Assembly: GCF_000341395.1 (NCBI RefSeq)
Contig: NC_020304.1
Location: forward strand, 1,920,001-1,952,000
Length of the DNA stretch: 32,000 nucleotides
Reading direction: 5' to 3'
DNA from: Desulfocapsa sulfexigens DSM 10523
GTDB taxonomy: Bacteria; Desulfobacterota; Desulfobulbia; Desulfobulbales; Desulfocapsaceae
Under the pieces are notes generated by a model. That model ran no database searches. It saw only the letters and a list, made by a program, of their open reading frames with translations, and had not been told where the DNA came from. The translations under genes were made by a program, and so were the position numbers. Numbering within the stretch: the first letter of the stretch is position 1; each line of letters starts with the position of its first letter. Shown here one piece after another: positions 3,901 to 31,701 of the stretch.

Positions 3901-3906
3901 TATTCA

Positions 3907-10171: not shown

Positions 10172-12340
10172 ATGACTGAACAGGAAAAATCGAATAATCC
10201 AGAAGAATGGCATATCATAGATGATAGTGACAACCAGGATGATCCCCTTCTTGACTGCCTTGAAATTCTGGCCAAAATATATGACCGTCCTATCTCCAGA
10301 ACGGTATTGCGTGCTGGATTGCCCCTTGTCCATAATCGGTTGACGGTCGAACTTGTTTCACGGGCCACACGTCGAGCCGGTCTTTCCTCACGACTTCTCA
10401 AACGTCCTCTTGATCAGTTTAACACGCATGAATTACCCGCTATAGTGTTGCTGGATAATCGACGTGCCTGTGTAGTAATTAAAGCAGATTCAAGCGATGG
10501 CACTCTGGAAGTAATATGGCCGGAAAGTCAGGGGAGCCAGATTGTGTCCTGTGAAGAACTGGCTGACACATATACGGGATATTCAATTTTTGTCAAACCC
10601 AAATATCGTATTGACGATCGGGGAGTGAGTCATCCAAGGGATCGATCAAAAAACTGGTTCTGGGGGACTGTGCTGACTTCATGGCGGATTTACAGAGATG
10701 TCATTATCGCCTCCTTTCTGATTAATATTTTCGCTCTTGCTACCCCGTTTTTCTTGATCAATGCCTATGATAGAATCATTCCCAATCTCGCTTTTGAAAC
10801 ACTGTGGGTTCTTTCCGCCGGAGTTGCAGCTATTTATTTCTTTGAACTTATCCTGCGAGGATTACGCGCTTATTTTATTGATATGGCAGGAAAAAAATCC
10901 AACCTTGTTTTGTCGTCAATTCTGATGGAAAAAGTGTTCGGTCTTCGTCTGGAGGCTCGCCCGAAGTCCATTGGTTCGTTTACCAAGCAACTTCAGCAGT
11001 TTGAAAGCATACGGGATTTTATTACATCCTTTTCCATTACCGCCCTGGTAGACCTTCCCTTTGCCTTTCTCGCACTCTTGGCTCTCTGGTATGTTGGTGG
11101 ACGTCTGGTGTTGGTTAGTGTCGTATGTATTGTACTTATTCTCATTTATGCATTTATTGTCCAGAGCCCTTTGAGAAAGTCCGTTGGGAAAACCCATAAT
11201 GCAGAGTCCCAAAAAAATGCCATACTCGTAGAGGGCCTGTCAGGCATTGAAACCATAAAAATTTTAGGGGCCGAAAGTAAGATCCAGCGTGCCTGGGAAG
11301 ATTCTGTGAGTTTTATAGCCACCTGGAGTGCACGTACCCGATTTCTCTCCGCGTCAGTCGGGCATGTCGCCCATTTCCTCCAGAATCTCTCTCTCGTTGC
11401 GATTATTATCTTCAGTGTCTATATGATCTCTTGGGGGGAAATGACCGGTGGAGGCCTTTTTGCCTGTATATTTCTCACTCGGCGTGCAACCTCGCCAATG
11501 ACACAGGTCGTGAGTCTGATGACTCGTTTTCATCAAGCACGAAATTCTCTTCAGACTCTGAATAAAATAATGGAACTTCCGTCTGAGCGTCCTACAGAAA
11601 AAGTATTTTTACACCGGACGAGTTTCAACGGTGCCTTAACCCTCGAGAACCTTTCTTTTACCTATCCCGGCGACTCAACGGAAGTGCTGAGAAATATTAA
11701 TTTGCAGATCAACCCTGGCGAGAAAGTAGGCATTATCGGCCCTATTGGTTCCGGCAAGACAACCCTTGGCAAACTCATTCTTGGACTCTATGAACCAAGC
11801 AAAGGAATGGTTGCAATGGATGGTACCGATATCCGACAGATTGATCCAGCAGAACTGCGGAATTTTATCGGCTATGTCTCGCAGGATGTAGTCCTTTTTA
11901 AGGGGAGTGTGCGTGATAATATCGTTCTCGGGACCAGCGATATTGATGACTCAACGGTCCTGCGTGCTGCCAAGATAGCTGGTGTGAGCAACTTTGTGGA
12001 AAAGAATCCGAAGGGTTATGATATGCCGGTGGAAGAGCAGGGGCGCAATCTTTCCGGCGGGCAAAGGCAAGCCATAGCTATAGCCAGAGCGATTCTTCTT
12101 GATCCCCCTGTTTTGCTCATGGATGAACCAACCAGCTCGATGGATAATAGAAGTGAATCAATGATACGGGATAATATGTTGGAGATTTTGCAGAATAAAA
12201 CGACAATCATTATAACGCATCGCATATCATTATTGGAAATCGTTGACAGAATTGTAGTGATCAGCAATGAAACAATTGTGGCTGATGGAACCAAGCAGCA
12301 TATTCTGGAGGCTCTGAAAAACGGCCAATTGTTGATATGA
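10172..12340 (+). CDS. Type I secretion system permease/ATPase (LapB/LssB-like ABC exporter with an N-terminal C39-like domain)
   Basis: 722 aa. N-terminal 'DPLLDCLEILAKIYDRPISRTVLRAGLPL' resembles a T1SS C39-like domain. A six-helix TMD follows. Walker A 'GPIGSGKTT', signature 'LSGGQRQ', Walker B 'LLMDEPTS'. Confidence 0.9.
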   Translation: MTEQEKSNNPEEWHIIDDSDNQDDPLLDCLEILAKIYDRPISRTVLRAGLPLVHNRLTVELVSRATRRAGLSSRLLKRPLDQFNTHELPAIVLLDNRRACVVIKADSSDGTLEVIWPESQGSQIVSCEELADTYTGYSIFVKPKYRIDDRGVSHPRDRSKNWFWGTVLTSWRIYRDVIIASFLINIFALATPFFLINAYDRIIPNLAFETLWVLSAGVAAIYFFELILRGLRAYFIDMAGKKSNLVLSSILMEKVFGLRLEARPKSIGSFTKQLQQFESIRDFITSFSITALVDLPFAFLALLALWYVGGRLVLVSVVCIVLILIYAFIVQSPLRKSVGKTHNAESQKNAILVEGLSGIETIKILGAESKIQRAWEDSVSFIATWSARTRFLSASVGHVAHFLQNLSLVAIIIFSVYMISWGEMTGGGLFACIFLTRRATSPMTQVVSLMTRFHQARNSLQTLNKIMELPSERPTEKVFLHRTSFNGALTLENLSFTYPGDSTEVLRNINLQINPGEKVGIIGPIGSGKTTLGKLILGLYEPSKGMVAMDGTDIRQIDPAELRNFIGYVSQDVVLFKGSVRDNIVLGTSDIDDSTVLRAAKIAGVSNFVEKNPKGYDMPVEEQGRNLSGGQRQAIAIARAILLDPPVLLMDEPTSSMDNRSESMIRDNMLEILQNKTTIIITHRISLLEIVDRIVVISNETIVADGTKQHILEALKNGQLLI

Positions 12341-13746
12341 AAGAAAATTCTGAGATCTCAAAAAATCTGAAGACTTCTCACGGCAGGACCCCTCGCTCGG
12401 TGGAAAAGCAGAAAAAAGGCTTCTTTTTTCAACAACAGAACTCCGATGTTGATTTAATAACCGACATCCGCATGTCGCTCCTGGCTCAGTCTCCACGAGG
12501 TGGCAGTATTATCCTCTGGATAATAGTCATCGTGTTTTTTTGTGCTGTGGCCTGGGCATATGTGGCGGAAGTAGAGGAGGTAACCAGAGCAAGCGGAAGA
12601 GTTGTGCCTGCAAGGCAACTGCAGATCGTACAGAATCTTGAGGGCGGAATTCTCTCCGAGATTCTGGTGAATGTCGGTGATGTGGTGAAACAAGGTCAGC
12701 TCTTACTCCGTATTGACGAAAAGCGTTTTTCCGGACCGTACCGGGAAAGTCGATTTAATTATCTTGCGCTCAAAGCCCAGGTTGCACGATTACAGTCCGA
12801 GACATACTCCACACCGTTTGTGCTCCCGGAGGAAGTGATGGCTGAAAATCCTGAGGTAGGTAACCGGGAAAAGGAGTTATTTGAGTCACGAAAAAAGGAA
12901 CTTGCCCAAACGCTAGGGGTGCTGGAGGAACAAAGTCGGCAACGTGAACAGGAAATCGTTGAACTTGAGGCTAAGATTGCTGAGCTGTCACGGACGCGCT
13001 ATCTGCTTAAAAAGGAAATTAACATGACCCAACCTTTGGTAAAAGGTGGGGCTGTTTCGGAGGTGGAATTCCTGCGCCTGCAGCGTCAGGACAGTGAGAT
13101 GCAGGGAGATATCATGGCTTCACAGCTCGCTCTTCCCAGAGCAAAGTCGAGACTTCTGGAGGCGCAGAAAGGAATAACTGAGGCAAAGCTCAGGTTCTCC
13201 AATAACGCCAAAAAGGAACTCAATGATGCCTATGCAAAACTTGAGGGACTTTCAGCTACCACCGTTGCCTTGGCCGATCGTCTGGACAGGACGGCTGTAG
13301 TCTCACCTGTCAGGGGAATAGTGAATCAAATTTTTATTAATACTGTTGGTGGTGTCATTCAACCGGGTATGAACTTGATTGAAATTGTTCCATTGGAGGA
13401 TACTCTTCTGGTGGAAGCGAAGATCAAACCCTCGGATATCGCCTTTCTTAGCCCTAACCTGAAGGCCACTGTAAAGTTCACAGCCTATGATTTTACACTG
13501 TATGGTGGACTCGAAGCGAAAGTTGAGCATATCAGTGCTGATAGTATCGTCGATAAACAGGGAAACAGCTACTATCTGGTAAATGTCCGCACAACAAAAA
13601 ATTATCTTGGAACTAAAAATGCCCCCTTACCTATTATTCCCGGAATGGTGGCCTCTGTTGATATTCTGACCGGAAAAAAACGCGTCCTTACCTATTTGAT
13701 GAGGCCAATTCTTCGTGCTCAGAGCTTAGCTCTACGTGAGAGGTGA
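12337..13746 (+). CDS. HlyD family type I secretion periplasmic adaptor (LapC-like)
   Basis: ATGA overlap with the ABC gene. Single N-terminal TM 'IILWIIVIVFFCAVAWAYV', a long coiled-coil middle, and the C-terminal 'VDILTGKKRVLTYLMRPI' typical of HlyD/TIGR01843-type proteins. Confidence 0.9.
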   Translation: MKENSEISKNLKTSHGRTPRSVEKQKKGFFFQQQNSDVDLITDIRMSLLAQSPRGGSIILWIIVIVFFCAVAWAYVAEVEEVTRASGRVVPARQLQIVQNLEGGILSEILVNVGDVVKQGQLLLRIDEKRFSGPYRESRFNYLALKAQVARLQSETYSTPFVLPEEVMAENPEVGNREKELFESRKKELAQTLGVLEEQSRQREQEIVELEAKIAELSRTRYLLKKEINMTQPLVKGGAVSEVEFLRLQRQDSEMQGDIMASQLALPRAKSRLLEAQKGITEAKLRFSNNAKKELNDAYAKLEGLSATTVALADRLDRTAVVSPVRGIVNQIFINTVGGVIQPGMNLIEIVPLEDTLLVEAKIKPSDIAFLSPNLKATVKFTAYDFTLYGGLEAKVEHISADSIVDKQGNSYYLVNVRTTKNYLGTKNAPLPIIPGMVASVDILTGKKRVLTYLMRPILRAQSLALRER

Positions 13747-14562: not shown

Positions 14563-16929
14563 ATGGGAATTACTACCTATCTTTTTCACAAATCGAATGG
14601 TTTGGAAAAACAGAGATTTAATATGTTTTTCCTGGATATGGGAGAAAATATCCATTTCCATTACCGGGACCTTAGAATTGAGCTTTCTGTTGGCGAATTC
14701 AAGGAACTGGCAGAACTCTTCAAACTCTACTCCCAGGATGTCCTCAATGAAATTGAGGCAGGATATAAAGATGGTGTTCTGGCGAATACAAATGAGGCTG
14801 GTACGCTCAAGACCTTTTGGGACAAGGAGAAAAAACTTACTTTTCCTGTGAAGTATAATGAACAGCAACTGGCCATTGAAGAGACCAAAGATGGTTTTCA
14901 TCTCCATATTAGAAACTATAAAATTCTCATGGGGAAAGACTCCTTTATTCTCCTTGTAAAGGCTATTGCTCCGATTTCTTCATTGTTGGAAAGTAATGAT
15001 CTGAAACGGGACCCTGTTCAATTGCTGGCAGAAAACGAACTTGGCACAAAACTAATTTCACGATTTCAGACAGAAGGACATGAGGAAATCGTAATTGAGG
15101 TTGATAAAACCTACCGTAACAAAGCAGGGCAGGTGCTTAAGGCGCTTGGCTTTATTCAAGGAGTGGTAGAAAATAGTAGGGTGGCATATAACAAAGACAG
15201 TTCAACTGTTGTTCTTGTACCTCCCGGTTACGCCCCACAAGCTGCCGATATGGTCAGCACCGATACGTCGCTGGATCTGCCGGCTTTTCTCGCCAGGTAT
15301 GGACATGACCTTGATACCACGGATCTTAATCAGCTTAAGCTTAAGATTCTCTCACTCTTGAAAATGGCCGAACAAGGTGGCATCAGACCTTTTCGTTTGC
15401 AGGATCTGTATATCAACAGAAGCTCGCTCAATCCGGCTGTTGATCTCTTTTGTCGCCTTGAGGGTATTGATCCCAAACAGGAAATTGATTCATTTAATAA
15501 ATTGCTCGGTACAAATAAATTATTCATGATCAAACCAGAAAAGGAGCTCTTTCCCCCCGAGAAGCAGGATCAGATTTTCGATGCTTTTTTTGACTTTGTT
15601 ATGCAAAAGCTTGCTCCTCATGAATGTGTGCGCAAAATATATGTCCTGGGTTCCTCAACGAATCGTCGATCCGGTTGTTATAAGGTACCCTTTGTTCATT
15701 TTGACTGGGCAAAGATCAACTCGGATTTTGACATCTATATCGAGCTGGATCCGGATTATGAGGGTACTCTTCCTGAGGAATGGGACAAGAAGTTTTATTG
15801 GGATCGTGCTGGTTGCGATTATTACCATTTTGGTGATGTCGGTGATGGAATGATATCTGAGTATGCTCAACGATATCCTGGTATCCGCTTTTATGAGCAG
15901 CTTGTTGAAGGCTATCTGTTTCATCCCTCGACAGGTGACAAATCCAAAAAGGATAAGTGGTTTGGTGAAGTAAAAGCTCGTTGTATTTTCTCACGAGACA
16001 GGATTGCCGAATGGGTGAATCAGAACTATGAAATCACAGTTCATGAGACGGAGCGGTTTAATGTAGCATCATTTAACCGAGTCTATCATATTTTTTCTCC
16101 TTCGGAAGAATATGTTCTAAAAGTATATGATTCCAAATACCTGAATAAGAAAAATAAAAAGAAGATCGCCTACGAGATTGGTGTTTTGGATTCATTGAAA
16201 GAGTCTGGTCTGGAAGTTGCTCTTCCGTTGAAAAATAAAGCAGGAAAATATATCAGTCAAAAAGATAAGGAGCAGGCAGTGCTCTTTACTTTTGTTCCTG
16301 GTAAATATGTGGCGAAACCGACTCTGGAAGAGAATATGCTTGCCGGGAATTTGCTGGCGCGTTTCCATAATGAGGCGAAGCGTTATAAAACAAAGTATGC
16401 GAAAGTGTACAGCAACAAACAGCTCCTCTTTTACTGGCTCGATTCCTGGCAGGAATACCATGATCAGGGAGGAATCGTAGGAACTGATATCTCTCTGGAT
16501 ATTCCGTACTACACTAAACGTCTGCGAAATTTCAATACTTTCCCGACTCACTGTCATGGCGATTTATCCATTATTAATTATCTCTTTCGCGATGGAAAAT
16601 GCTGGCTGATCGATTTCCAGAGTGTCGGTTATGGACCTGCTCTCATCGATTTGGCAAACGGAATGGTTGAATTTTCTGCCCAGAAAAGGGACTTTTATAT
16701 GGAGAATCTTGAATCCTTCAAAAAGGGTTATGAGAATGTTCGAAAACTATCACGCGCAGAGAACGATTTCCTTACTGATCTTTTAGTCATCCAAATTGCC
16801 GTCAGGCAGGCAAAGCTGTTACGTTTACACTATGGAGGGTTTGGCTATGAATTGAAAGAAGACAGGATCCTTGGATTGCGAATGGGTATCGAAAAATTAC
16901 TAGCTTTGACCGACTCTTGTGGGGAATGA
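14563..16929 (+). CDS. Multidomain protein: unknown N-terminal region, minimal nucleotidyltransferase-like domain, and APH/homoserine-kinase-II-like kinase domain
   Basis: 788 aa. Residues ~355-395 'KIYVLGSS...(22)...SDFDIYIELD' fit the pol-beta NTase G[SG]...DxD pattern. The C-terminus has the kinase catalytic loop 'HCHGDLSIINYLF' and 'WLIDFQ'. The N-terminus has an internal repeat ('NIHFHYRDLRIEL' / 'GFHLHIRNYKILM'). The start codon is uncertain. Confidence 0.65.
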   Translation: MGITTYLFHKSNGLEKQRFNMFFLDMGENIHFHYRDLRIELSVGEFKELAELFKLYSQDVLNEIEAGYKDGVLANTNEAGTLKTFWDKEKKLTFPVKYNEQQLAIEETKDGFHLHIRNYKILMGKDSFILLVKAIAPISSLLESNDLKRDPVQLLAENELGTKLISRFQTEGHEEIVIEVDKTYRNKAGQVLKALGFIQGVVENSRVAYNKDSSTVVLVPPGYAPQAADMVSTDTSLDLPAFLARYGHDLDTTDLNQLKLKILSLLKMAEQGGIRPFRLQDLYINRSSLNPAVDLFCRLEGIDPKQEIDSFNKLLGTNKLFMIKPEKELFPPEKQDQIFDAFFDFVMQKLAPHECVRKIYVLGSSTNRRSGCYKVPFVHFDWAKINSDFDIYIELDPDYEGTLPEEWDKKFYWDRAGCDYYHFGDVGDGMISEYAQRYPGIRFYEQLVEGYLFHPSTGDKSKKDKWFGEVKARCIFSRDRIAEWVNQNYEITVHETERFNVASFNRVYHIFSPSEEYVLKVYDSKYLNKKNKKKIAYEIGVLDSLKESGLEVALPLKNKAGKYISQKDKEQAVLFTFVPGKYVAKPTLEENMLAGNLLARFHNEAKRYKTKYAKVYSNKQLLFYWLDSWQEYHDQGGIVGTDISLDIPYYTKRLRNFNTFPTHCHGDLSIINYLFRDGKCWLIDFQSVGYGPALIDLANGMVEFSAQKRDFYMENLESFKKGYENVRKLSRAENDFLTDLLVIQIAVRQAKLLRLHYGGFGYELKEDRILGLRMGIEKLLALTDSCGE

Positions 16930-18823: not shown

Positions 18824-19852
18824 ATGATTAGTGCAAGAGGAAATCGAACCAAAATAGCAGTGTTTAACGATGAAATTTATGATTCCAGTCTTGAGCACGA
18901 TCTGATAACAGAAGGTTTTTTTGCTGTGGCAATCAAGGATCCAAAACTTTCTGATATAAATGGACACCCTGATTTTATTTTGGCACCGGAATGGATTCGG
19001 TGGCTGATGCCAACACCAGAAACATCTGAGATGTGGATTACGAATCTTGGATCCAGCCATGATCGATACAAATTAAGGAAAAAACTGAAAACCAGTCATG
19101 CTCAAAGCGGTGACGTTCGTGTTGATATAGCTCCTTTGTCTGTGGATGATTATAAGATCTGGTATGAGAGTTTATACCTCCCTGAAATAGGAGAAAAAGC
19201 TGGAGCAATTTTGTTTTGGCCTGCGCCCGAATCCTTGTCAAAAAAAGTGAGAGTGAGACCATCAGGAGAGGTCGCTAATTATTTCAGGATTTTTATGTAT
19301 CATAAGGATGGGAGTTTCATTGGTGGCTCACTCTGGTTTATTTCTCATCCCCAAAGCATTTTGATTATTGCAGCTACAGCCTTTAAGCAGAAGGCCCGTG
19401 CAAAATACGAATTATCAATTCGTGGAATGGACGAGTCTCTAACTTTTGCCATCTCGCATGGCTTGAAGTGGATGAGTTACGGTACCGATCCGAACCTTTA
19501 TGGTGTCGATTTCAGTCTTGGTTTGCAAATGTTTAAAGCAAGCATCGGCATGAAACCCGTCTTTCCAAGATATGGATCCTTTCAGCTTATTAAAGTTATA
19601 GACAAAACCTTGAGCCGAATTGATTCTGCAAATAGCGAAAAGCCTTCTGTTCTCATTTTTGCAATTGGCGGAAATAATGTATCAGACAGAATTCTGAACT
19701 ATCAACACCTGCCACCACTGACCCCAAAGAGAAACTTTGATCTATTGTGGAATCGAGATTTTGGTCTAACGCCCGTTCGGTTTGTGGTCCATCCTCAAAC
19801 TCCCGCTGTTAAAGTTCCCAATGGGATGATTCTTCAGGATATTATTTTATAG
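18824..19852 (+). CDS. Hypothetical protein, tandem paralog 1 (possible FemAB/GNAT-like acyl- or aminoacyl-transferase fold)
   Basis: 342-aa ORF. The C-terminal half 'GLKWMSYGTDPNLYGVDFSLGLQMFKASIGMKP' resembles the '...FK..fG..P' tail of FemAB/CelD-type (Acetyltransf_6) proteins. The functional call is weak. Confidence 0.4.
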   Translation: MISARGNRTKIAVFNDEIYDSSLEHDLITEGFFAVAIKDPKLSDINGHPDFILAPEWIRWLMPTPETSEMWITNLGSSHDRYKLRKKLKTSHAQSGDVRVDIAPLSVDDYKIWYESLYLPEIGEKAGAILFWPAPESLSKKVRVRPSGEVANYFRIFMYHKDGSFIGGSLWFISHPQSILIIAATAFKQKARAKYELSIRGMDESLTFAISHGLKWMSYGTDPNLYGVDFSLGLQMFKASIGMKPVFPRYGSFQLIKVIDKTLSRIDSANSEKPSVLIFAIGGNNVSDRILNYQHLPPLTPKRNFDLLWNRDFGLTPVRFVVHPQTPAVKVPNGMILQDIIL

Positions 19853-19884: not shown

Positions 19885-20913
19885 ATGATTATTGCAAGAG
19901 GAAACAGAACTAAAATAGCAGTGTTTCGCGATGAAAATTATGATTCCAACCTTGATCACAATTTGATAACAGATGGCTTTTTTGCTGTGGCAATCAAGGA
20001 TCCAAAACTTTCTGATATAAATGGACACCCGGATTTTATTTTGGCACCAGAATGGATTCGGTGGCTGATGCCAACACCAGAAACGTCTGAGATGTGGCTC
20101 ACGAGTCTTGGATCCAGCCACGATCGATACAAGTTAAGGAAAAAACTGAAAGCCAGTCATGCTCAAAGCAGTGACATTAGCGTCGAGATAGCTCCTTTAT
20201 CTGTAAATGATTACAAAATCTGGTATGAGAAGTTGTATCTCACTGAAATTGGGGGAAAAGAAGGTGCAATTCTGTTTTGGCCAAAGCCAGAAGCCTTATC
20301 AAAAAAAGTGACAGTGACACCATCAGGAGAGGTCGCTGATTTTTTTCGGATCTTTATGTATCACAAGGACGGAGGTTTTATTGGTGGAGCTCTTTGGTCT
20401 ATTTCTCATAGCGAAAACAGTTTGACTACAAGAGCTGCAGCTTTTGAGAAAAAGGCCCGCACAAAATACGAATTAGCGGTTCGCGGAATGGAAGAGGCTC
20501 TATCTTTTGCCATCTCACAAGGGTTGAAGTGGATGAGTTATGGTACCGATCCAAACCTCTATGGTGTCGATTTTAGTCTTGGTTTGCAAAGGTTTAAAGC
20601 AAGTATCGGCATGAAACCTGTCCTGGCCAGAGTCGGATCCATTCGGCTCATTAAGATCCTGAATAAAAATTTAAGCCAGATTCATGCGGTTGATGGGGAA
20701 AAGCCATCCACTCTCATATTTGCACTCGGTGGAAACGACGTGTCGAAGAGAATTATGGCCTATCACGATCTGCCACCACGAAAAAAAAGAAGAAACATGG
20801 ATCTTATGTGGAATCAGGATATTGGCCTGACTCCTGTCCGTTTTGTGGCCCATCCTCAAACTCCCGTTGTTAATGTGCCCAAAGGGATGATACTTCAGGA
20901 CATTCTCCTTTAG
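19885..20913 (+). CDS. Hypothetical protein, tandem paralog 2 (same family as 18824-19852)
   Basis: 342 aa, collinear without indels with paralog 1, at roughly three-quarters identity by eye. Long near-identical DNA stretches, for example around 'AVAIKDPKLSDINGHPDFILAPEWIRWLMPTPETSEMW'. Confidence 0.4.
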   Translation: MIIARGNRTKIAVFRDENYDSNLDHNLITDGFFAVAIKDPKLSDINGHPDFILAPEWIRWLMPTPETSEMWLTSLGSSHDRYKLRKKLKASHAQSSDISVEIAPLSVNDYKIWYEKLYLTEIGGKEGAILFWPKPEALSKKVTVTPSGEVADFFRIFMYHKDGGFIGGALWSISHSENSLTTRAAAFEKKARTKYELAVRGMEEALSFAISQGLKWMSYGTDPNLYGVDFSLGLQRFKASIGMKPVLARVGSIRLIKILNKNLSQIHAVDGEKPSTLIFALGGNDVSKRIMAYHDLPPRKKRRNMDLMWNQDIGLTPVRFVAHPQTPVVNVPKGMILQDILL

Positions 20914-22217: not shown

Positions 22218-24875
22218 TTACAGAGGCAGTTTGATGTAAAATCGTGTTTCCTCATTGCTCTCTTCCTTGTCGCATTTGACGTCATTGGAGAAACGAACAG
22301 AATCAGAATAACGACAACTCAATAATGCGACCACTTCTTTAAACTCTCTCTCTGTTACAAAACGTGTTTGATAATCTGTTTTACGGTTATCTGTGACAAT
22401 TGGATATAAATGTAAACTTTTATGGAATGCTCCGGAGAGTGTGTCGACACGCAGCTTCGCTATAGCGCTGTAAGGAGGCGCATCGAGCTTGCCATATCGC
22501 CCCTTGGAATTAAACATAAAATTACCGATACTATAAATAAGCCACTGATTGTCATGCTTTTCAATCTCTTGTATCATATGTGCCCCATGCCCGAGAATCA
22601 GATCCGCCCCCTCTTTTAACATGCGCTCCGCCAGTCTTGCCTGGCGATCGCTACGCCATTTGTAATTTGGCCCCCAATGGGGGAACAATACAACAAAGGT
22701 ATTAGCATATTCTTTTCTGACACGCTTAATCTCATTGCGTACACGTTTAAACGAAATCGGGTTCAAACCCCGATCTTTTTCTGAGGCATACATTTTGAAT
22801 GAATCCTTCTTACGGGAGGGACCGGCATACATTGATATCATTGCCAATGTAAATACTTTTCCATCTATTTGACTCTGTGCAATAAATGCTTCACCGGCTT
22901 CGTCAATAGTTGCACCACCACCAAAATATGTAATTCCAGCTTCTTCCAAACTGTGTAATGTCTGGTAGAAACCTTCTTCCCCAAAATCAAACATATGATT
23001 ATTGGCGAGTCCTACCGTACTGATATTATTTGCAAGTAAATGACGAGGTGTTTGTTTTATATCCCCCCAGTGTACCCATGACTTTTGGCCTGCAAACGGA
23101 GAAACTTTCAAGTCGGTAAGAGGTGTTTCGAGATTTGCAACAACCAGATCGGCCTCTTCCAGCATATTCCGGACCTTGGCCAGCGGGGCATCGTACCCTC
23201 TTGCTTTAAGAATGTTTTCCTCCCCATAGCTTTCGTACTGAGCTTGATAATTTTCTCCAAAAGCTGTATCGCCTACAAAGACAACCTCAAACGCGGAAGG
23301 GGTATGCAATTCATTTATTGTCCGGAATGGGGGCGTTCTCTTCTTTTGTTGCTGTTTATATTGACTTTGTGAGCGTTTTTCCTGTGCTTCATTCATCACC
23401 AAACTTTTTTTCCTGATGTTTTTACCTGTCTTTTTAATGGCAGATAAAATCATCTCGAGATTGGCAGTGGAGCGCCTCGACCCCTTCACCCAGAGAATAT
23501 CGCTACCGTGCATTTCCTTCACTACCGCCTTAGCAATATGCTCAGGATCCTCACTGTGTTCTCCTTCCATCGTTTTAGGAAGAGCGTCCCACAAGCCCTC
23601 CAGATCACGGCCTACGGTGAACAACACATTGACCTGGGCATCTATGACATGCGGTGCTAAAGCCGCATGGAGCTGCGCTGAAGTATCGCCAAGCTCTTTT
23701 ATCTCACCCATGATGGCAATACGTCTACCGCCTTTACGTGGTTTTTTAAGTCCCAGTACTGCTAATCCTGCCTCTACAGAGGCAGGATTAGCACTGAAGG
23801 TGTCATCGATGAGTGTAATATCTCCACTGGCCAGCTCAACTGTATATTTTTCGTTATGACGGCTGAGAACGGGTGCCTTTTTAATATCTTCAGCAGCCTT
23901 TATCCAGTCTCCGCCGGCAGCATGAACGGCAGCCAAGGCACCGAGACAATTCATGATACTATGCGTACCGGGCTGGTTCACATGAAATGATATCTCTTGT
24001 TTATGGAAAATAACCCTTACATCACTTGACTCACTATGCAAAGAATAGTCGATTATTTTCATGTCGGCATCTTCATGTGTGCCGAAGGTGATAATGTTCT
24101 TGACGTTCGCGGCTTTTGCATTGGTCAACTGCCGATCAAACAACGTAGCATCATGGTTAAGCACGACAATGCCTTCCGGTTGTAAGGATTTGAATAGCAG
24201 GCACTTCTGGTCGGTTAACTTTTCCAAAGTCCCGTAAAATTGCAGATGATCAGAATGGATATTGGTGATCATGGCTATGTCTGGTCTGATAATGCTAGCC
24301 TTCTTCTCAGTCACATTTGGCAGATCAACGGAAAACTCATAGACACCAAAACGCATATCAGGTGGTGTCTCTGCGAGCATCAGCGGTACCCCCGGTCCGT
24401 GGTTGTAGTTCTTACGGCTTCCCTTTGTCGTACCCTGCTGACACAATAAGAAACGGGTAATCTCTTTTGTCGTTGATTTCCCGGCACTGCCTGTAATTGC
24501 TACGACCGTGCCACGTATCCTGTTACGTGCCGCCTCTCCCAGTGCGTCGAGCGCCTCCCTGGTATTTTTAACCAGAAGCACCGGGTTGTCGCTTCTGTAG
24601 TTTGCAGGTAATTGCCCCGCAACAACCACTGCCGCATGTTTATTGTCGAAAAATGTCTGAATGATTTCGTTGGTATTTTTATATGCAGATGAACGCCAAG
24701 TCTTCGGTTCCGTGGTAATTACCACATCCCCTGGCTCAACCTGTCCTGCATAATAGTTGACTCCTGTAACATGCAAGTCTTCGGGAACCTGTCCAACCCA
24801 TTGACCACCCATAATTGACTGCAGTTCCTGTGCGCTCCATAGTACTGACTTTGTTGCATCTGTGTCAGGTCGCAT
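22218..24875 (-). CDS. Fusion protein: MurF-like Mur ligase (N-terminal ~490 aa) plus CapA/PgsA (PGA_cap, metallophosphatase-like) domain (C-terminal ~360 aa)
   Basis: Mur ligase P-loop 'VAITGSAGKSTTKE', with 'MITNIHSDHL' and 'LIDDTFSANPASV' (compare MurF 'DDSYNANP'). A Lys/Gln-rich linker follows. CapA-type motifs are 'VVFVGDTAFGENY', 'GLANNHMFDFG' and 'LFPHWGPNY'. No TM segment is seen. Confidence 0.8.
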   Translation of the reverse strand: MRPDTDATKSVLWSAQELQSIMGGQWVGQVPEDLHVTGVNYYAGQVEPGDVVITTEPKTWRSSAYKNTNEIIQTFFDNKHAAVVVAGQLPANYRSDNPVLLVKNTREALDALGEAARNRIRGTVVAITGSAGKSTTKEITRFLLCQQGTTKGSRKNYNHGPGVPLMLAETPPDMRFGVYEFSVDLPNVTEKKASIIRPDIAMITNIHSDHLQFYGTLEKLTDQKCLLFKSLQPEGIVVLNHDATLFDRQLTNAKAANVKNIITFGTHEDADMKIIDYSLHSESSDVRVIFHKQEISFHVNQPGTHSIMNCLGALAAVHAAGGDWIKAAEDIKKAPVLSRHNEKYTVELASGDITLIDDTFSANPASVEAGLAVLGLKKPRKGGRRIAIMGEIKELGDTSAQLHAALAPHVIDAQVNVLFTVGRDLEGLWDALPKTMEGEHSEDPEHIAKAVVKEMHGSDILWVKGSRRSTANLEMILSAIKKTGKNIRKKSLVMNEAQEKRSQSQYKQQQKKRTPPFRTINELHTPSAFEVVFVGDTAFGENYQAQYESYGEENILKARGYDAPLAKVRNMLEEADLVVANLETPLTDLKVSPFAGQKSWVHWGDIKQTPRHLLANNISTVGLANNHMFDFGEEGFYQTLHSLEEAGITYFGGGATIDEAGEAFIAQSQIDGKVFTLAMISMYAGPSRKKDSFKMYASEKDRGLNPISFKRVRNEIKRVRKEYANTFVVLFPHWGPNYKWRSDRQARLAERMLKEGADLILGHGAHMIQEIEKHDNQWLIYSIGNFMFNSKGRYGKLDAPPYSAIAKLRVDTLSGAFHKSLHLYPIVTDNRKTDYQTRFVTEREFKEVVALLSCRYSDSVRFSNDVKCDKEESNEETRFYIKLPL

Positions 24876-24937: not shown

Positions 24938-25930
24938 TTACAACTCGAGACCAAGTCGAGAAAAATGTAAGAATGAGGAAATGTTGTGCTGAATATAATC
25001 AATTCTAACTTCATTCTTACGCCGATCATGGCCTCCCCTGACAAAAGAACCATCTGGGAGGCGGAAACCCAACTGTTTGTTTAGGTTGTATTTGATCTGT
25101 TCAATGCACCTTTCACATAACGTTTTATCATCGATAGTATCTGGTCGTTTCAGACGTAAAAAAGCCAGCAGACCTTCTGATCGGCAGGCTATCGGGGTAC
25201 TTCTTTCCCATGAGAGGTATTCGGGATTGTCGAGTATATGGAGTACTATTTTTTCGGCATGGTGATAGTAGAGAGAAGACACTTCATAATTTGACAGGAG
25301 CTCAAGAAAATAAAGCATCCAGTGAGATTGTTCTTTCACCCCATAATCCTCGGGCGCGAGTTCATTCTCAATTTTCCGCACGGCATCATACCAATACTTC
25401 TGTTGTGTTAGCCTGTATAGGGCCACCAGCGCAAATAGTGCTTCACCGGTATAATACATCGAGTGAAATTTGGATATTTTTCCTGACTTAAAATATCGTT
25501 TATGAACTAACCCGTTGTTCTCCATCCGTTGATCTACCATAAACTGTGCAAGTCGCTCAGCAATAGTCAAGAGGAAAGGATCCTGAGTTGTTTCGAATAA
25601 AGAGACCAGAGCCAGGGTGGAAAGGGCATTTCCCCCAAGCTTGATGGTATTGTTTTCACAGATACAAGCGTTGTTGTAGCTACGGTAAAATCTCAAATAG
25701 GTGTCAAGGAGATAATGTGTAGCTTGACGACAACAGTCTAAAATTTTTTTATCAGAAACATCACGATAAACGTCAAGCATTGCCCAGACAGCTCCTGCAT
25801 GACGGAGGACATTGTAACCTTTTAGAGGGCGGGCCTCCTGTGAATCATACCTGTATTTAAAGCTGCCATTTTTCTGAATCAAGTTTGCAAGGCATGCCGC
25901 TCCGGTATGTGCAATCTCAAGTGTATCCAT
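24938..25930 (-). CDS. Hypothetical protein, possibly an (alpha/alpha)-toroid repeat fold
   Basis: 330-aa ORF 62 nt upstream of the Mur-CapA gene on the same strand. Recurrent helix-pair motifs ('LRHAGAVWAMLDVY', 'GGNALSTLALVSLFE', 'YYTGEALFALVALYR') resemble prenyltransferase, LanC or glycoside-hydrolase toroids. The fold guess is weak. Confidence 0.35.
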   Translation of the reverse strand: MDTLEIAHTGAACLANLIQKNGSFKYRYDSQEARPLKGYNVLRHAGAVWAMLDVYRDVSDKKILDCCRQATHYLLDTYLRFYRSYNNACICENNTIKLGGNALSTLALVSLFETTQDPFLLTIAERLAQFMVDQRMENNGLVHKRYFKSGKISKFHSMYYTGEALFALVALYRLTQQKYWYDAVRKIENELAPEDYGVKEQSHWMLYFLELLSNYEVSSLYYHHAEKIVLHILDNPEYLSWERSTPIACRSEGLLAFLRLKRPDTIDDKTLCERCIEQIKYNLNKQLGFRLPDGSFVRGGHDRRKNEVRIDYIQHNISSFLHFSRLGLEL

Positions 25931-26046: not shown

Positions 26047-26259
26047 TTATTTTCTCGGTTCCATTAATGTGAGAATGACACTGGTCCGGTCTTCTGGGTT
26101 AGGCATACCTCCTGGGTTGAACCATCTGTCCAGCAACAGGTAAGGGCCTCTGTCTCCCTTTAGAATCGCTCCCACATTCTGCCACCTGGTCTTCTCGTTA
26201 CCTTCATGGTCTTCGTAAGTACCAAGCGGAATTGCAACATCATACATTTTCTTGGACAT
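26047..26259 (-). CDS. Small conserved-looking hypothetical protein (70 aa)
   Basis: GGAG 8 nt upstream of the ATG. 'GNEKTRWQNVGAILKGDRGPYLLLDRWFNPGG' looks like a folded small protein. I recognise no family. Confidence 0.45.
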   Translation of the reverse strand: MSKKMYDVAIPLGTYEDHEGNEKTRWQNVGAILKGDRGPYLLLDRWFNPGGMPNPEDRTSVILTLMEPRK

Positions 26260-26502
26260 TCCCGTATCTCCTTTGAGAATAGTGTTTGTTTAGACTGGAA
26301 GCTGTTGAGATTAAAAGCCTGTTACAGCTTAAACATACTTAAACCATCTCAAAAATAAGTTTTTTTATCAACCTTTTACGAAAAAAATATTTACTCAGTT
26401 GATAAATGCTGGACTCCCGTTTAGCCATGAGAATTACTCTGTCCTGAACGCATCATTTGCACAGCTTTCTTTTCGATATTCCATGAGGCTAATGTTGTGC
26501 CT

Positions 26503-26548
26503 CAAAAAAGAAAAAGCGTGGATAAGTTTTTTCAAGACTTACCCACGC
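26503..26548 (-). terminator. Rho-independent terminator of the poly-Asp protein gene
   Basis: On the minus strand: GCGUGGGUAAGU-CUUGAAAAA-ACUUAUCCACGC (12-bp stem, one G.U) followed by UUUUUCUUUUUU. It begins ~36 nt after the TAG stop. Confidence 0.75.
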
Positions 26549-26583
26549 CTCTGGGTCAAGCAAATGCAAACGGCGAGACTATA

Positions 26584-28248
<1,665 letters not shown>

Positions 28249-28860: not shown

Positions 28861-30819
28861 TCAGTTCAGCTCGGTGGGGTTATCAAGGTAATATCCCTGA
28901 ATACCGTCGATATTGAGATCACACAATGCCTGATACTGCGCTTCTTCTTCTACCCCCTCGGCAATAACCAGGATATCAAGGCTATGAGCCACACCGGTCA
29001 ATGCACCAATGAAGAAATGATTGTTACTGTCTTCTTTGAGTTCATCAATGAAGGCTCGATCTATTTTGACATATCTGGGCTGTAGGGATTTTAAATACCC
29101 AAAATTGGCAAAACTCTGCCCAAAATGATCAAGGCCGACAAAGTGCCCTAATGCTTTTACCTCTTTTGCAAAATCCTGGAGAATATTCAGTTCTTGAGTC
29201 GCATTAAACTCAGCAAATTCAAAGATGATCCTCGGTGCTCCCGGAGGCATTTGTTTGAGGCTGGATAAAAGCCAGGCGGTAAACGATACATCTTTAAGGG
29301 AAGATGGAGAAATATTGACAGCAAGTTCATTGGAGTGCAACTTTCCACTATCAACAAGCATCGCTTTTTCAATGACGATTTTGTCGATAGAGGATATACA
29401 CCGTAGTCGTTCTGCCAGGGGGATGAAGATGCCGGCATTAAGCATTTGACCTGTCGGCAAGGGTATCCGCGCTAAAATTTCCCTATGCATAAGCTGTTTC
29501 AAGTTGCTGCTCATGACCACGGATTGGCTAAACAGAGTAATATCTTTATTGTCCAGGATCTGGTTCAGAAGAAGCTTCCATTCGTGCTCTCCACGTGGGG
29601 TAATGGCAGGTTCAGCGGAAAGTAATTCAACGATCCAGGTGTTTGGTCCCTGGTTTTGTGCTGCTCTCAAAATTTGATCGGCCTCGGAGAGCAGTTCCTT
29701 AAGGGATGTCACTTGTTCATAAATGACACCTCCTACATGTCCAACGTTTTCAGAGGACCCAACGTCTTCAATGGCCAAGCTGGCAAAGCCTCTGGTTATT
29801 GCTGCGGCTACATGACGTGCATCTTCCTCTGTAACATCCGGTAAAAAAACTGCAAAACTGCCTCCTGAAATATGTGCGAGTGCGGAATTTTTCAGCCCTC
29901 GTGTCGCTTCACGAATACAGTTCGCAACCTTCTGGAGGAGTTGGTTTCCGCGTAAATACCCTTTTTCCTGGTTGAGCTCCAGGAGATTATGAACCTGGAC
30001 AAGTAAAAATGCTCCCTTAATAGAAGCGGTATCACTCTTATCCATTCTAGCCGCCACCTGTCCCTGCAGGTAGCGCCTGTTGCCTAATCCGGTCAAAGCA
30101 TCACTATAGGCATTTTTCCTCAATCTGTTCGCCACCCGCGCCTGTTCATCGAACATCTTTTTCACTTTAGCGGTCATGCTATTCATCGCAACAACAACCC
30201 GTCGCAGTTCACGGGTTCTCGGGAGCTTCTCTTGGAATGTGTACTGTTTTTTGCAGAGGGCCTCTGCCTGCTGTTCAACCCGCCGTAAAGGCTTGAGCAG
30301 GGCTCGCAAGCCAAGGGCGCCCAGCACTATCACAATAACACCTGTAACGCCAAAAATTTTTGTCATATTACAGATGGCTTCCCAGAGTGTTTTATAGGCA
30401 TACCCCGGGTGACTTTCCACATAGAGACTGCCTCTCTGTGTCCATCCTGCAGTTAGCAGTGTACTGGCACCTGGAGTTTTTAAGGGGACAGCTCTTATAA
30501 ACCAGGCCGGAACATCGTTGATAATGACCTTAAGGGTTCTATCTATATGGACTGTATCATCCAGGTCAGTGAGCCGAATTGTACGATAATACCCACGATC
30601 AAAAACAACATTGATCATGGTTTCGATTGTAGCCATATCGTTCTCAGCAATATAGGGGGTGATCGATAATCCTAGAGAGGTTGCTGTATCCTGGGCATGG
30701 GATTCGAGCTGGTCTTCAAGAAAAGAACGTGTACCCTGGAGTTTGATGATCCATGTACAGGTGAAAAGAACAAAAAAGAGTACTAATGTAAATATGAGCA
30801 GTTGTCTGTAAAGTGTCAT
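28861..30819 (-). CDS. lapD: LapD-like inner-membrane c-di-GMP receptor (LapD_MoxY_N periplasmic domain, HAMP, degenerate GGDEF, EAL-like)
   Basis: The N-terminus 'LYRQLLIFTLVL...EDQLESHAQDTATSLGLSITPYI...GYYRTIRL...VPAWFIRAV' is collinear with P. fluorescens LapD as I remember it. 'PRTRELRRVVVAMNSM' marks the HAMP region. 'SGGSF' replaces GGDEF. The EAL region has 'EIL', 'DHFGQSF' and 'AEGVEEE'. Confidence 0.85.
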   Translation of the reverse strand: MTLYRQLLIFTLVLFFVLFTCTWIIKLQGTRSFLEDQLESHAQDTATSLGLSITPYIAENDMATIETMINVVFDRGYYRTIRLTDLDDTVHIDRTLKVIINDVPAWFIRAVPLKTPGASTLLTAGWTQRGSLYVESHPGYAYKTLWEAICNMTKIFGVTGVIVIVLGALGLRALLKPLRRVEQQAEALCKKQYTFQEKLPRTRELRRVVVAMNSMTAKVKKMFDEQARVANRLRKNAYSDALTGLGNRRYLQGQVAARMDKSDTASIKGAFLLVQVHNLLELNQEKGYLRGNQLLQKVANCIREATRGLKNSALAHISGGSFAVFLPDVTEEDARHVAAAITRGFASLAIEDVGSSENVGHVGGVIYEQVTSLKELLSEADQILRAAQNQGPNTWIVELLSAEPAITPRGEHEWKLLLNQILDNKDITLFSQSVVMSSNLKQLMHREILARIPLPTGQMLNAGIFIPLAERLRCISSIDKIVIEKAMLVDSGKLHSNELAVNISPSSLKDVSFTAWLLSSLKQMPPGAPRIIFEFAEFNATQELNILQDFAKEVKALGHFVGLDHFGQSFANFGYLKSLQPRYVKIDRAFIDELKEDSNNHFFIGALTGVAHSLDILVIAEGVEEEAQYQALCDLNIDGIQGYYLDNPTELN

Positions 30820-30834
30820 ACACCGAACCTCACG

Positions 30835-31701
30835 TTATTGTATACTGGCAGGCATTCTCTCAAGCAGGTCATTCCATAATTTGAGTCTGTCACTTTTTCC
30901 CACCAGGTCACCTCTGCCTCGCTCTTTTGCCAGCCACAGTCCAGCACCATTGAAACTGTATACAGGAAGCAGGTCTGATCTTTGTGTTGCTGGCTTAATG
31001 GCATTGATAAGATTATCGAGAACCAAAGGCACAGCAGTGGGTGTTTTATAATAGGTAAGCACCATATGACTTTGATTTAATTTCCAGGCCTTAACATACG
31101 TCAGGGTAAGTTTTTTCTCAGGAACCCCCAACATCTTCAGAGTAAAATATTTTGAAAGGGCAAAATCTTCGCAGTCGCCGCCATCACTTGCAAGAAACTC
31201 TACCGGAGTGGCCCAATAATCTTTTTTTGACCAATGTATTGCATCACTGACAAAATTGAGTTGATTAAAGAATCTGTTTACTTTTTCCAGCTTTTCAATA
31301 TCGGTACGACTCGTATCTTCACGGACAAACTGCTGCCAGGCCAGAAGTCTTTTTCTTGCATCAACACCATATTTATCCTCAGCAGTATCGAGTAAAGATG
31401 AATCAAGTGTGAAAATTTCGTTGGCTGAGGCAATCTGGCCTGCAAAAAAAAAGAGTAAGAACACAAATGCGAAGGGTAGTAGAGTGTTGTTGGCAAATTT
31501 GAGGACGGAGCTACTGCGGGAAAGGACTAGTTGAATAATTGTTAATGGTGCGTTAACGGAATTTAATACAATTGCGCCATATCGATTGCTGGATCGGCTC
31601 TGCAACAAACCGTTGCCATCAATCATGAGTAAATCCCTGAAGTATAACGGGATACAATAAATACGGTCCTCAAACTGGCCATCCATTGTATCCCGCTTCA
31701 A
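30835..31701 (-). CDS. lapG: LapG-like periplasmic transglutaminase-like cysteine protease (BTLCP, peptidase C93)
   Basis: 'DGGDCEDFALSKYFTLKMLGV' holds the catalytic Cys, 'QSHMVLTYY' the His and 'LVLDNL' the Asp. Signal-like 'LLPFAFVFLLFFFAGQIASA'. The start is uncertain: TTG 31701, ATG 31686 or ATG 31626. Confidence 0.85.
   Translation of the reverse strand: MKRDTMDGQFEDRIYCIPLYFRDLLMIDGNGLLQSRSSNRYGAIVLNSVNAPLTIIQLVLSRSSSVLKFANNTLLPFAFVFLLFFFAGQIASANEIFTLDSSLLDTAEDKYGVDARKRLLAWQQFVREDTSRTDIEKLEKVNRFFNQLNFVSDAIHWSKKDYWATPVEFLASDGGDCEDFALSKYFTLKMLGVPEKKLTLTYVKAWKLNQSHMVLTYYKTPTAVPLVLDNLINAIKPATQRSDLLPVYSFNGAGLWLAKERGRGDLVGKSDRLKLWNDLLERMPASIQ

Follow-up and report, generated by a model that had tools for sequence, protein, structure and literature searches.

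A MurF-like ligase fused to a CapA-type domain in Desulfocapsa sulfexigens: a candidate ligase-epimerase encoded beside a poly-aspartate protein

Introduction

What might an amide ligase of the Mur family be doing in one polypeptide with a CapA-type domain, in a stretch of genome that holds no dcw genes? The question is raised by a 32-kb window of Desulfocapsa sulfexigens DSM 10523 (NC_020304.1, 1,920,001-1,952,000; positions below are those of this window unless a locus is named), in which a gene for a protein of 885 amino acids (aa) encodes a MurF-like ligase followed by a domain of the PGA_cap family, a protein referred to here as the fusion. We conclude that the fusion is very probably a non-housekeeping ligase-epimerase that belongs to a conserved and as yet undescribed gene module. 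Encoded close by is a 554-aa protein of the LapA type with 256 consecutive aspartates, which we propose as the candidate substrate or partner of the fusion.

Two known systems in which Mur-fold ligases handle amino-acid polymers frame the question. Poly-gamma-glutamate (PGA) synthesis employs the Mur-fold ligase PgsB together with PgsA. Cyanophycin synthetase, CphA1, consists of an N domain, an ATP-grasp G domain and a Mur-like M domain, and it is the M domain that joins an amino acid to the beta-carboxylate of poly-aspartate (poly-Asp).

Data and approach

Domains were called with Pfam and NCBIfam at their curated cut-offs by scanning the open reading frames (ORFs) of the window, the small ones not exhaustively. 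Invariance refers throughout to an alignment of 11 fusion homologs (A1), and colinear homologs of the fusion were collected by an exhaustive HMMER search over 1.84 billion cluster representatives. Protein clusters carry P-numbers, P0001 being the existing gene call for the fusion, and genome loci carry L-numbers; the neighbourhood survey covered 71 loci with fusion relatives together with several more that were found through a neighbouring 330-aa protein, hereafter the toroid. MurF-like domains were placed in a neighbour-joining (NJ) tree, midpoint-rooted and without support values. The toroid was modelled with AlphaFold, whereby a single-sequence model (pLDDT 41) was discarded and the run repeated with a 30-sequence alignment.

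A genuine fusion of two conserved halves

The fusion gene (Table 1) is one uninterrupted ORF, as the first-pass annotation had described it, with the correction that it lies on the minus strand. The four motifs that were quoted then (GSAGKSTT, DDTFSANP, NNHMFDFG and HWGPNY) are all in the translation, the Lys/Gln-rich linker between the domains reads KNIRKKSLVMNEAQEKRSQSQYKQQQKKRTPP, and a conserved extension continues beyond PGA_cap to aa 885. The remark that no transmembrane (TM) helix is present agrees with a maximal 19-residue Kyte-Doolittle mean of only 1.18; given this low hydrophobicity and an N-terminus unlike a signal peptide, the protein looks cytoplasmic. The existing gene call is shorter, 864 aa, and begins 21 codons later at M22. 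Since L12 and W13, both upstream of M22, are invariant across homologs and an AGGA precedes M1, we prefer the 885-aa start.

Could the two halves have been joined by an assembly or sequencing error, or could the protein simply be the organism's housekeeping MurF with a CapA domain attached? The chance of either is very small. The same colinear fusion is found in 11 clusters at 90% identity (40-100% identical), with both domains conserved and the linker variable, and at least 20 representatives at 50% identity, 856-2233 aa in length, align with it continuously between residues ~10 and ~860. The homologs come from many independent assemblies, and because they are colinear over both halves the artefact that the first-pass annotation had named as a danger to its reading is rejected: the fusion is genuine. 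Loci L009 and L010 carry unfused and fused paralogs in tandem, and the canonical MurE-MurF of Desulfobulbus-type genomes falls into a different clade. The source annotations of relatives name one half or the other, either 'MurF' (P0009, P0010, P0012, P0013) or 'CapA family protein' (P0008).

A MurF-clade ligase apart from housekeeping MurF

Among the Mur ligases the N-terminal half resembles MurF most closely. PRK14093, an NCBIfam MurF model, matches aa 8-482 at 1e-99, although under its cut-off; models of MurE, MurC and MurD follow at 1e-26 to 1e-18, FolC at 9e-6, and the cyanophycin synthetase model TIGR02068 at only 1.2e-8 over aa 199-334. The nearest PDB structures are likewise MurF entries, 4cvk (9.5e-36) and 1gg4, with which the fusion shares the three-domain Mur architecture, the P-loop, the Mg/ATP residues, the Lys at the carbamylated-Lys position and the DDxxxANP motif (DDTFSANP in the fusion, D-D-S/T-Y-N-A-N-P in MurF). 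All three Mur regions reported earlier are present in so far as the NCBIfam MurF models span residues 8-482, N-domain included; the Pfam model of that domain, PF01225, is however undetected.

Catalysis by Mur ligases involves a Mg-binding Glu and His, a Lys at the carbamylated-Lys position, the DxxxxANP motif and an Arg of the C-domain. The P-loop of the fusion (G129-S-A-G-K133-S-T-T) is invariant in A1, as are E180, H210, K224, D357/D358, N363 and R384/R385, which align with the corresponding MurF positions. Because the P-loop and these residues, the DDTFSANP motif among them, are invariant, the ligase half should be an active ATP-dependent carboxylate-amine ligase.

The MurF likeness has its limits. 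Three curated MurF models score under their cut-offs (TIGR01143, 258.5 vs 288.6; NF010693, 334.4 vs 544; NF008041, 149.5 vs 551). PF01225, the N-terminal domain for the UDP-substrate, which is found in nearly all canonical MurF matches, is absent from the precomputed Pfam annotation of P0001-P0014, so that the N-domain has diverged past the model. No dcw genes lie within the 32-kb window, whose first 9.5 kb are taken up by housekeeping genes, among them those for Lon, EF-P/EpmA, a radical SAM protein and an Nth-Exo fusion. In the NJ tree the MurF-like domains associated with the module group together, apart from canonical MurF including the Desulfobulbus MurE-MurF. On the strength of the sub-cut-off scores, the undetected PF01225, the lack of dcw genes and the separate tree group, and as judged from sequence, the CapA-fused protein is very probably a MurF-clade paralog distinct from housekeeping MurF, which is what the first-pass annotation had supposed from the lack of a dcw context.

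The CapA-type half and its comparison with MslH

The C-terminal half matches PGA_cap (PF09587) at 180.3 bits against a cut-off of 27, over profile positions 2-254 of 255. The only characterised homolog with both a structure and an assigned chemistry is MslH, which is a better guide to this domain than PgsA/CapA. MslH (PDB 8gq9) is a Ca-dependent epimerase that acts on the C-alpha of the C-terminal Trp of a lasso-peptide precursor, and its essential residues, which comprise metal ligands and two His/Asp dyads, are D11, E44, N87, H88, D91, H259, H261 and H295 (PMC10406935). By direct alignment E583, N626-H627-x-x-D630 and H766 of the fusion stand opposite E44, N87-H88, D91 and H295, residues whose mutation abolishes the epimerase activity of MslH (PMC10406935); outside the alignment, D536 of a GDT motif and H733 of a PHWG motif were assigned by motif position to D11 and to one His of the H259/H261 pair. 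All of these catalytic-type residues are invariant in A1 with the exception of H627, which is present in 10 of the 11 sequences. The comparison suggests that the PGA_cap half plausibly epimerises an N-acylated residue bearing a free alpha-carboxylate, an activity that is plausible rather than assured for a CapA domain. The fusion differs from MslH in being joined to a ligase and in its context, as there are no lasso-peptide genes in the window.

The authors of the MslH work propose CapA as the epimerase of PGA synthesis (PMC8179263), and the first-pass annotation had set the fusion in the frame of PgsB/CapB and CapA. The likeness to the PgsB/PgsC/PgsA system is that a Mur-fold amide ligase is paired with a CapA-family protein, for which epimerisation at the level of the peptide has been proposed. 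It is nevertheless very improbable that the fusion is a soluble, fused version of the PGA synthetase pair that makes or modifies PGA, despite the strong PGA_cap match and the CapK-like gene that L196 has close to its module. In PgsB/PgsC/PgsA the ligase is PgsB-type and the subunits are separate proteins assembled into a complex in the membrane, whereas the ligase of the fusion is of the MurF clade, with no PgsB/CapB model among its 22 NCBIfam matches at E <= 0.001, and its CapA domain has no membrane anchor. CapC/PgsC and PgsE were unmatched by the window ORFs scanned, small ORFs not exhaustively, and the ribosomal tracts associated with the fusion consist of Asp, not Glu. The PgsB/CapB frame is accordingly given up and the link to PGA kept only as an analogy, while 'polymer-modifying amide ligase', the more general label of the first-pass annotation, remains a fair one for the best current reading.

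A poly-Asp protein and a toroid encoded with the fusion

All on one strand, the poly-Asp gene, a 70-aa gene (p70), the toroid gene and the fusion gene follow one another in this order, separated by 324, 116 and 62 bp, and the set is flanked by LapD/LapG genes and by the genes of a type I exporter (Table 1). The earlier description of this context was right about the absence of dcw genes, but it overlooked the poly-Asp gene, the (alpha/alpha)6 partner and the CphA-like fusions described below. A scan for promoters and terminators across 21.9-28.9 kb was uninformative, the counts being equal to the shuffle expectation.

Table 1. Features of the 32-kb window, with the fusion and its domains first
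Feature	Position	Strand	Basis and remarks
MurF-like ligase / PGA_cap fusion gene	22218..24875	-	885-aa ORF; ATG start; stop codon 22218-22220; Pfam and NCBIfam domains; colinear homologs
MurF-clade Mur ligase module, aa 8-482	23430..24854	-	NCBIfam MurF models align residues 8 to 482
Mur_ligase_M (PF08245), aa 127-317	23925-24497	-	E 6.5e-38; 131 bits vs cut-off 24
Mur_ligase_C (PF02875), aa 351-467	23475-23825	-	E 7.4e-12; 46.6 bits vs cut-off 28.4
Lys/Gln-rich interdomain linker, aa ~484-525	23301..23426	-	variable region in A1
PGA_cap domain (CapA/PgsA/MslH-type, calcineurin-like fold), aa 531-789	22509..23285	-	E 6.4e-53
Stretch disputed between the 885-aa and 864-aa starts	24813-24875	-	
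Toroid, 330-aa (alpha/alpha)6-barrel protein	24938..25930	-	62 bp upstream of the fusion; AF2 pLDDT 97.2
p70, 70-aa protein	26047..26259	-	between poly-Asp and toroid genes; no Pfam match
LapA-type poly-Asp protein, 554 aa	26584..28248	-	retention_LapA (NF033682), 63 bits vs cut-off 50
Tract of 256 consecutive Asp	26713-27480	-	within the poly-Asp gene
LapD-like c-di-GMP receptor	28861-30819	-	LapD_MoxY_N, GGDEF, EAL; NF045673, 521.7 bits, under cut-off 1020
LapG-like BTLCP protease	30835-31701	-	Peptidase_C93, 1.4e-15
DUF2156 / LPG_synthase_C protein (aminoacyl-tRNA transferase fold), 305 aa	21247..22164	+	Pfam 1.1e-14; convergent with the fusion gene
C39-domain ABC transporter (type I secretion)	10172-12340	+	Pfam
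HlyD-family adaptor (type I secretion)	12337-13746	+	Pfam
APH788, 788-aa protein with C-terminal APH kinase-like domain	14563-16929	+	Pfam; ~500 N-terminal aa without assignment
LTD (Lamin Tail Domain) protein, 540 aa	17064-18686	+	Pfam; lipoprotein-like N-terminus LLLLFLCCCSS
Two tandem 342-aa paralogs	18824-19852, 19885-20913	+	recurrence in L006
EF-P and 296-aa class II tRNA-synthetase-like gene	3337-4797	+	
HhH-GPD / Exo_endo_phos fusion, 480 aa	7324-8766	+	

The 554-aa protein begins with a retention module and continues with the di-alanine A124-A125 (within PATAAGP), a (T-T-P/E-T-P)n linker, the 256 Asp and a short acidic C-terminus. LapG is known to cleave LapA at 108AA109, of which A124-A125 is the counterpart here (PMC10990149). 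The aspartates are encoded by 148 GAT and 108 GAC codons, and because the two are interleaved, with no run of the same codon longer than 4, the tract would appear to be under selection on the protein rather than to be a slipped trinucleotide repeat. Spurious long ORFs (poly-Ile/Val, poly-Ser and poly-Met/Thr) overlap the gene in other frames at 26497-27820. Together with the LapD-like, LapG-like and ABC/HlyD genes, the retention module and di-alanine give the locus the outline of a Lap system; it departs from one in its cargo, a T/P-rich linker and 256 Asp in place of a repeat-rich adhesin, and in the cytoplasmic ligase/epimerase genes that are embedded in it.

The toroid is the most constant partner of the fusion: in 23 loci its gene lies next to Mur/CapA genes or is fused with them. 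Its family counts 526 proteins at E <= 1e-5 and outnumbers the fusion by far. Foldseek matches its model, with TM-scores of 0.70-0.75 and 10-15% identity, to epimerases and isomerases of the AGE superfamily (cellobiose 2-epimerase, a GlcNAc-2-epimerase family protein, mannose isomerase) and also to GH76 and GH88; on these (alpha/alpha)6 matches the alternative of a LanC-like protein, or of a recognition protein of a ribosomally synthesised and post-translationally modified peptide, was rejected. Its invariant polar residues include R43-H44, H203-W204, C249-R250-x-E252 and H315, and it could recognise the substrate or perform a third chemical step. p70 is 86-94% identical in L001, L004, L006, L013 and L054 and more conserved than its neighbours; its homologs were found only in Desulfobulbales-type loci, L195 having a 70-aa gene at the same position, matched by position, and it has no Pfam or PDB match, the one relative found being an unannotated phage family (phrog_18187, 2e-8). 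Neither the fusion nor the toroid, p70 or DUF2156 protein has a TM segment or signal peptide, which is compatible with a modification that precedes one-step type I export.

Conservation and reshuffling of the module

The survey of domain architectures that the first-pass annotation had proposed shows that Mur and PGA_cap fusions recur, and that they do so in shuffled orders. Toroid, Mur and CapA form one ORF in L006, and CapA, toroid and Mur one 1445-aa protein in L018; CapA, an ATP-grasp domain of the YheC/D type and the toroid are joined over about 1340 aa in L003, L015 and L021; L196 has Mur-Mur-CapA, and an extra unfused MurF-like paralog is found in L009 and L010. A CphA-like part precedes the MurF-like and CapA domains in L195 (1758 aa) and precedes MurF-like, MurF-like and CapA domains in L009, and P0008 has a CphA-like N-terminal part too. 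Since toroid, Mur, CapA, ATP-grasp and CphA-like domains occur fused with one another, the parts of the module are taken to act together.

In the CphA-like parts the P-loop of the M domain (GxxGKT) has been lost, being replaced by GGARQKQ in L195, FGHQSKQ in L009 and STGGGRR in P0008, while the MurF-like P-loop of the same proteins is intact; the part in L195 scores 575 bits against the cyanophycin synthetase cut-off of 877. Going by these motifs the CphA-like M domains look non-catalytic, and the CphA-like parts fit the role of a scaffold that binds a poly-Asp backbone, the role of ligase having passed to the MurF-like domain. It is through these CphA-like N/G/M modules of relatives that the fusion resembles CphA1, from which it differs in having neither N nor G domain, in a ligase that is MurF-like rather than M-like, and in a presumed backbone that is ribosomal and part of a secreted protein.

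Further genes recur with the module. Beta-lactamase-fold proteins (PF00144) are found in L004, L008, L009, L010 and L195, and DUF2156 homologs lie inside the module in L006, L009, L010 and L055. A LapD/LapG pair adjoins the module in L009, L010 and L197, and homologous genes of the type I secretion system (T1SS) adjoin the acidic-protein or module genes in L008, L054 and L196. Sulfuricella-type loci have the order LapG-LapD-APH788-Mur-Mur/CapA-...-toroid-DUF2156, approximately the parts list of the window, at 28-60% identity.

The cell wall offers another home for such a set of genes. A MurF paralog might add an alternative amino acid or dipeptide to UDP-MurNAc-peptide, or recycle muropeptides, with CapA epimerising the new C-terminal residue and with DUF2156 (a Fem-like fold), the beta-lactamase-fold (DD-peptidase-like) proteins and the AGE-like barrel also engaged in muropeptide or amino-sugar chemistry. 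Such an enzyme would account for a similarity to MurF that extends over the full length (aa 8-482), N-terminal domain included, for neighbour families that have cell-wall members (LPG_synthase_C/DUF2156 and, in relatives, PF00144) and for a toroid whose closest folds are epimerases of the N-acylglucosamine and cellobiose-2 types; we take the Xanthomonas MurD2/MurL pair to be a precedent of an analogous kind. We consider it improbable all the same, as the MurF cut-offs are missed and PF01225 is undetected, the window has no other cell-wall genes, what is conserved is a link with LapD/LapG, T1SS and poly-Asp genes rather than with dcw or recycling genes, and fusion to a cyanophycin-synthetase-like protein makes no sense in muropeptide synthesis.

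Poly-Asp genes travelling with the module

Acidic genes accompany the module in many of its loci. Against the 256 Asp of the window there are 108 in L001, 621 in L004 and 426 in L195, where the JGI gene caller passed over the gene in favour of a 497-aa ORF of the other strand. Tracts at a contig edge occur in L054, in a Sulfuricella locus (L010, at least 88 Asp) and in Ca. Berkiella (L021, at least 97 Asp). Locus L055, from Alphaproteobacteria, has 136 acidic residues; L008, from Rhodospirillaceae, has 32 Asp and DK repeats beside two ABC transporters and HlyD; and in L196 a (DDM)n acidic protein lies beside HlyD and two ABC transporters. Together these poly-Asp or acidic loci, with 32-621 Asp, span Desulfobulbales-type metagenome-assembled genomes (MAGs) and Alpha-, Beta- and Gammaproteobacteria.

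The association is closest among near relatives. In the close subfamily, defined by a toroid at least 44% identical to that of the window, an acidic protein is encoded in all 9 loci that have flanking sequence, the others being contig-cut or flankless. Over the wider set, 8 of 26 loci with a toroid have a run of at least 30 D/E, as against none of 50 others (Fisher p = 8e-5, uncorrected for phylogeny and drawn from about 5 independent lineages).

A proposed ligase-epimerase of poly-Asp

How might these parts work together? The MurF-like half of the fusion would turn a carboxylate into an acyl-phosphate and, with an incoming amine, into an amide. It would work with the (alpha/alpha)6-barrel protein, and the DUF2156 aminoacyl-tRNA-transferase-like protein is probably involved; in relatives the module is joined by further MurF-like, ATP-grasp, cyanophycin-synthetase-like and beta-lactamase-fold proteins. 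The target would be the poly-Asp tract of the LapA-type protein from the same gene string, of which the ligase would activate the Asp beta-carboxylates, or else the free alpha-carboxylate of an existing branch residue, and an amino acid or dipeptide would be attached as an isopeptide branch, as the M domain of CphA1 does with Arg on poly-Asp. The fused CapA domain might then invert the newly attached residue to the D-form, since this residue would carry a free alpha-carboxylate like the substrate of MslH. The decorated protein would leave through the type I system with its C-terminus leading, and its retention module would plug the outer-membrane channel until LapG cuts at the di-alanine, under the control of LapD and cyclic di-GMP (c-di-GMP). 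What the cell would display at its surface is a branched, cyanophycin-like polyanion templated by the ribosome.

We favour this chain, in which poly-Asp carboxylates receive amino-acid branches from a cytoplasmic ligase-epimerase before the protein is exported, while giving it, taken as a whole, somewhat less than an even chance. It is genomic association that suggests poly-Asp as the substrate, and we infer this assignment together with the epimerase activity, the identity of the amine and the order of steps. More tentative again is the broader proposal that several proteobacterial classes convert ribosomal poly-Asp tracts (32-621 residues) of Lap-anchored T1SS proteins, before export, into a branched, D-amino-acid-containing cyanophycin-like polymer, and that the machinery which may do so consists of fusions between a MurF-derived ligase and a CapA/MslH-type epimerase, the (alpha/alpha)6 protein and cyanophycin-synthetase-derived scaffolds.

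Several observations weigh against the favoured chain. The ligase half is about 30% identical to true MurF over the full length, and use of UDP-MurNAc-peptide is conceivable. The CapA half has a single His (H733 in PHWG) where MslH has H259-x-H261, and its identity to MslH is low, with 47.6 bits against a cut-off of 700 for the MslH equivalog NF038314. The toroid resembles sugar epimerases and glycosidases rather than peptide-binding proteins, which fits a glycan or muropeptide substrate better. In L054 (2253-6612), a locus from a Desulfocapsa sp. MAG and the closest relative for the flanking genes, with p70, toroid, APH788 and T1SS genes 82-94% identical to those of the window, the CapA fusion is absent and three other genes take its place: a 276-aa protein with a weak Mac-1 Cys-protease match, a 785-aa protein of about 420 unassigned residues and a Mur ligase, and a methyltransferase. 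No acidic gene lies within 10 kb in the distant loci L003, L015, L017, L018 and L020 or in the Rickettsiales loci. The reverse test, in which metagenome contigs were scanned for (GAY)40, returned 120 loci, mostly short, contig-end, eukaryote-like or non-coding, and only 4 of these had a module gene, in each case the toroid; L076 is a near-identical relative of the window, and L079, L156 and L162 are three further metagenomic poly-Asp loci with a toroid. A general companionship of poly-Asp genes with the module does not follow from this test, of which only the three further toroid loci count as support.

Module loci that have no acidic gene would also suit a different product. The module might make a free, non-ribosomal poly(amino acid), cyanophycin-like or PGA-like, or a short D/L-peptide, assembled by MurF-like, ATP-grasp and CphA-like ligases with a CapA epimerase and not attached covalently to the poly-Asp protein, to which it would be linked in function only, for instance as counter-ion, coat or co-secreted matrix. 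Many relatives have a CphA-like part, and in L009 at least the ATP-grasp E-x-N motif looks intact; the YheC/D-type ATP-grasp domains and the tandem ligase-CapA proteins, as in L003, resemble a stepwise peptide assembly line; and PgsB/PgsA and CphA1 are established precedents for polymerisation without a template (PMC9262961). We regard a free product as unlikely, because a single ligase is recognisable in the window, where CphA and ATP-grasp domains are lacking, because the P-loops of the M domains in CphA-like parts are degenerate, and because in all 9 close-subfamily loci with usable flank the acidic T1SS protein is there, in tight same-strand order.

Known systems and significance

A last parallel for decoration of the poly-Asp protein is offered by RimK, which acts on ribosomal protein S6, and by the tubulin tyrosine and glutamate ligases, all of which add amino acids to acidic segments of ribosomally made proteins at the expense of ATP; YheC/D and TTL-like ATP-grasp domains do occur in related module loci, whereas the enzyme of the window has the Mur fold and not that of ATP-grasp. 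Because features that define MurF proper, the MslH equivalog, PgsBCA and CphA1 were looked for and the fusion lacks them, it is not a member of any of these. Our full-text searches, which led to the MslH, cyanophycin and Lap papers cited, gave no further relevant account, whether of Mur fused to PGA_cap, of Lap/T1SS proteins with poly-Asp or of CphA joined to CapA, and if the poly-Asp substrate were confirmed the system may be categorically new.

It would then stand for a new class of post-translational modification, the ATP-dependent branching of a ribosomal homopolymer by side-chain peptides, and would join the Mur ligases of the cell wall to cyanophycin and PGA synthesis and to the c-di-GMP-controlled display of Lap/T1SS proteins, offering a way to make a poly(amino acid) material on a ribosomal template. 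A soluble CapA domain would receive its first assigned biochemical role outside lasso peptides, and the CapA/PgsA-family domains, whose role in PGA synthesis is unsettled, a function that can be tested; the existence of cyanophycin-synthetase-like proteins with dead M domains would be explained. Natural poly-aspartate surface materials in sulfur-cycling and environmental bacteria would matter for the binding of metals and minerals and for technology based on biodegradable polyaspartate. On a minimal reading the analysis would still be likely to correct annotations ('MurF', 'CapA family protein') and to flag poly-Asp genes that gene calling misses or places on the wrong strand.

Other genes of the window and of related loci

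Whether the APH788, LTD and 342-aa genes (Table 1) are parts of the system is uncertain. Homologs of APH788 lie between LapD and Mur genes in L009 and L010 (28% identity), so that APH788 may be one of the parts, and there is one in L054. CapA genes have LTD homologs near them in L006 and in the Nitrosomonas loci L042, L043 and L058. For the two 342-aa paralogs, sequence comparison with Pfam, NCBIfam, PHROG and PDB gave no match; L006 has one homolog, beside its DUF2156 gene.

Among the genes of the first 9.5 kb, elongation factor P (EF-P) and the 296-aa class II tRNA-synthetase-like gene (EpmA/PoxA-like, an EF-P lysyl transferase) form an ordinary housekeeping pair. The 480-aa ORF combines an HhH-GPD glycosylase (Nth/MutY-like) with an Exo_endo_phos domain (ExoIII-like AP endonuclease) in a fused base-excision-repair enzyme.

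Beside the Mur-Mur-CapA gene of L196, at 15459-16388 (-), a 309-aa protein resembles the catalytic domain of extracellular short-chain polyhydroxyalkanoate (PHA) depolymerases (1.2e-9), a fold that is presumably shared by the poly(aspartic acid) hydrolase PahZ1. Two of the loci from the (GAY)40 scan, L162 (190-3900) and L079 (508-4470), encode poly-Asp proteins of other design with a toroid homolog nearby: the designs in this set have either a TadE-like N-terminus, a Pro run and D56, or a signal/TM segment, D45-D82 and a G/S-rich tail. The toroid of L162 adjoins an HTTM (vitamin-K carboxylase-like) domain protein and a TPR protein, and that of L079 adjoins a pair of extracytoplasmic function (ECF) sigma and anti-sigma factors.

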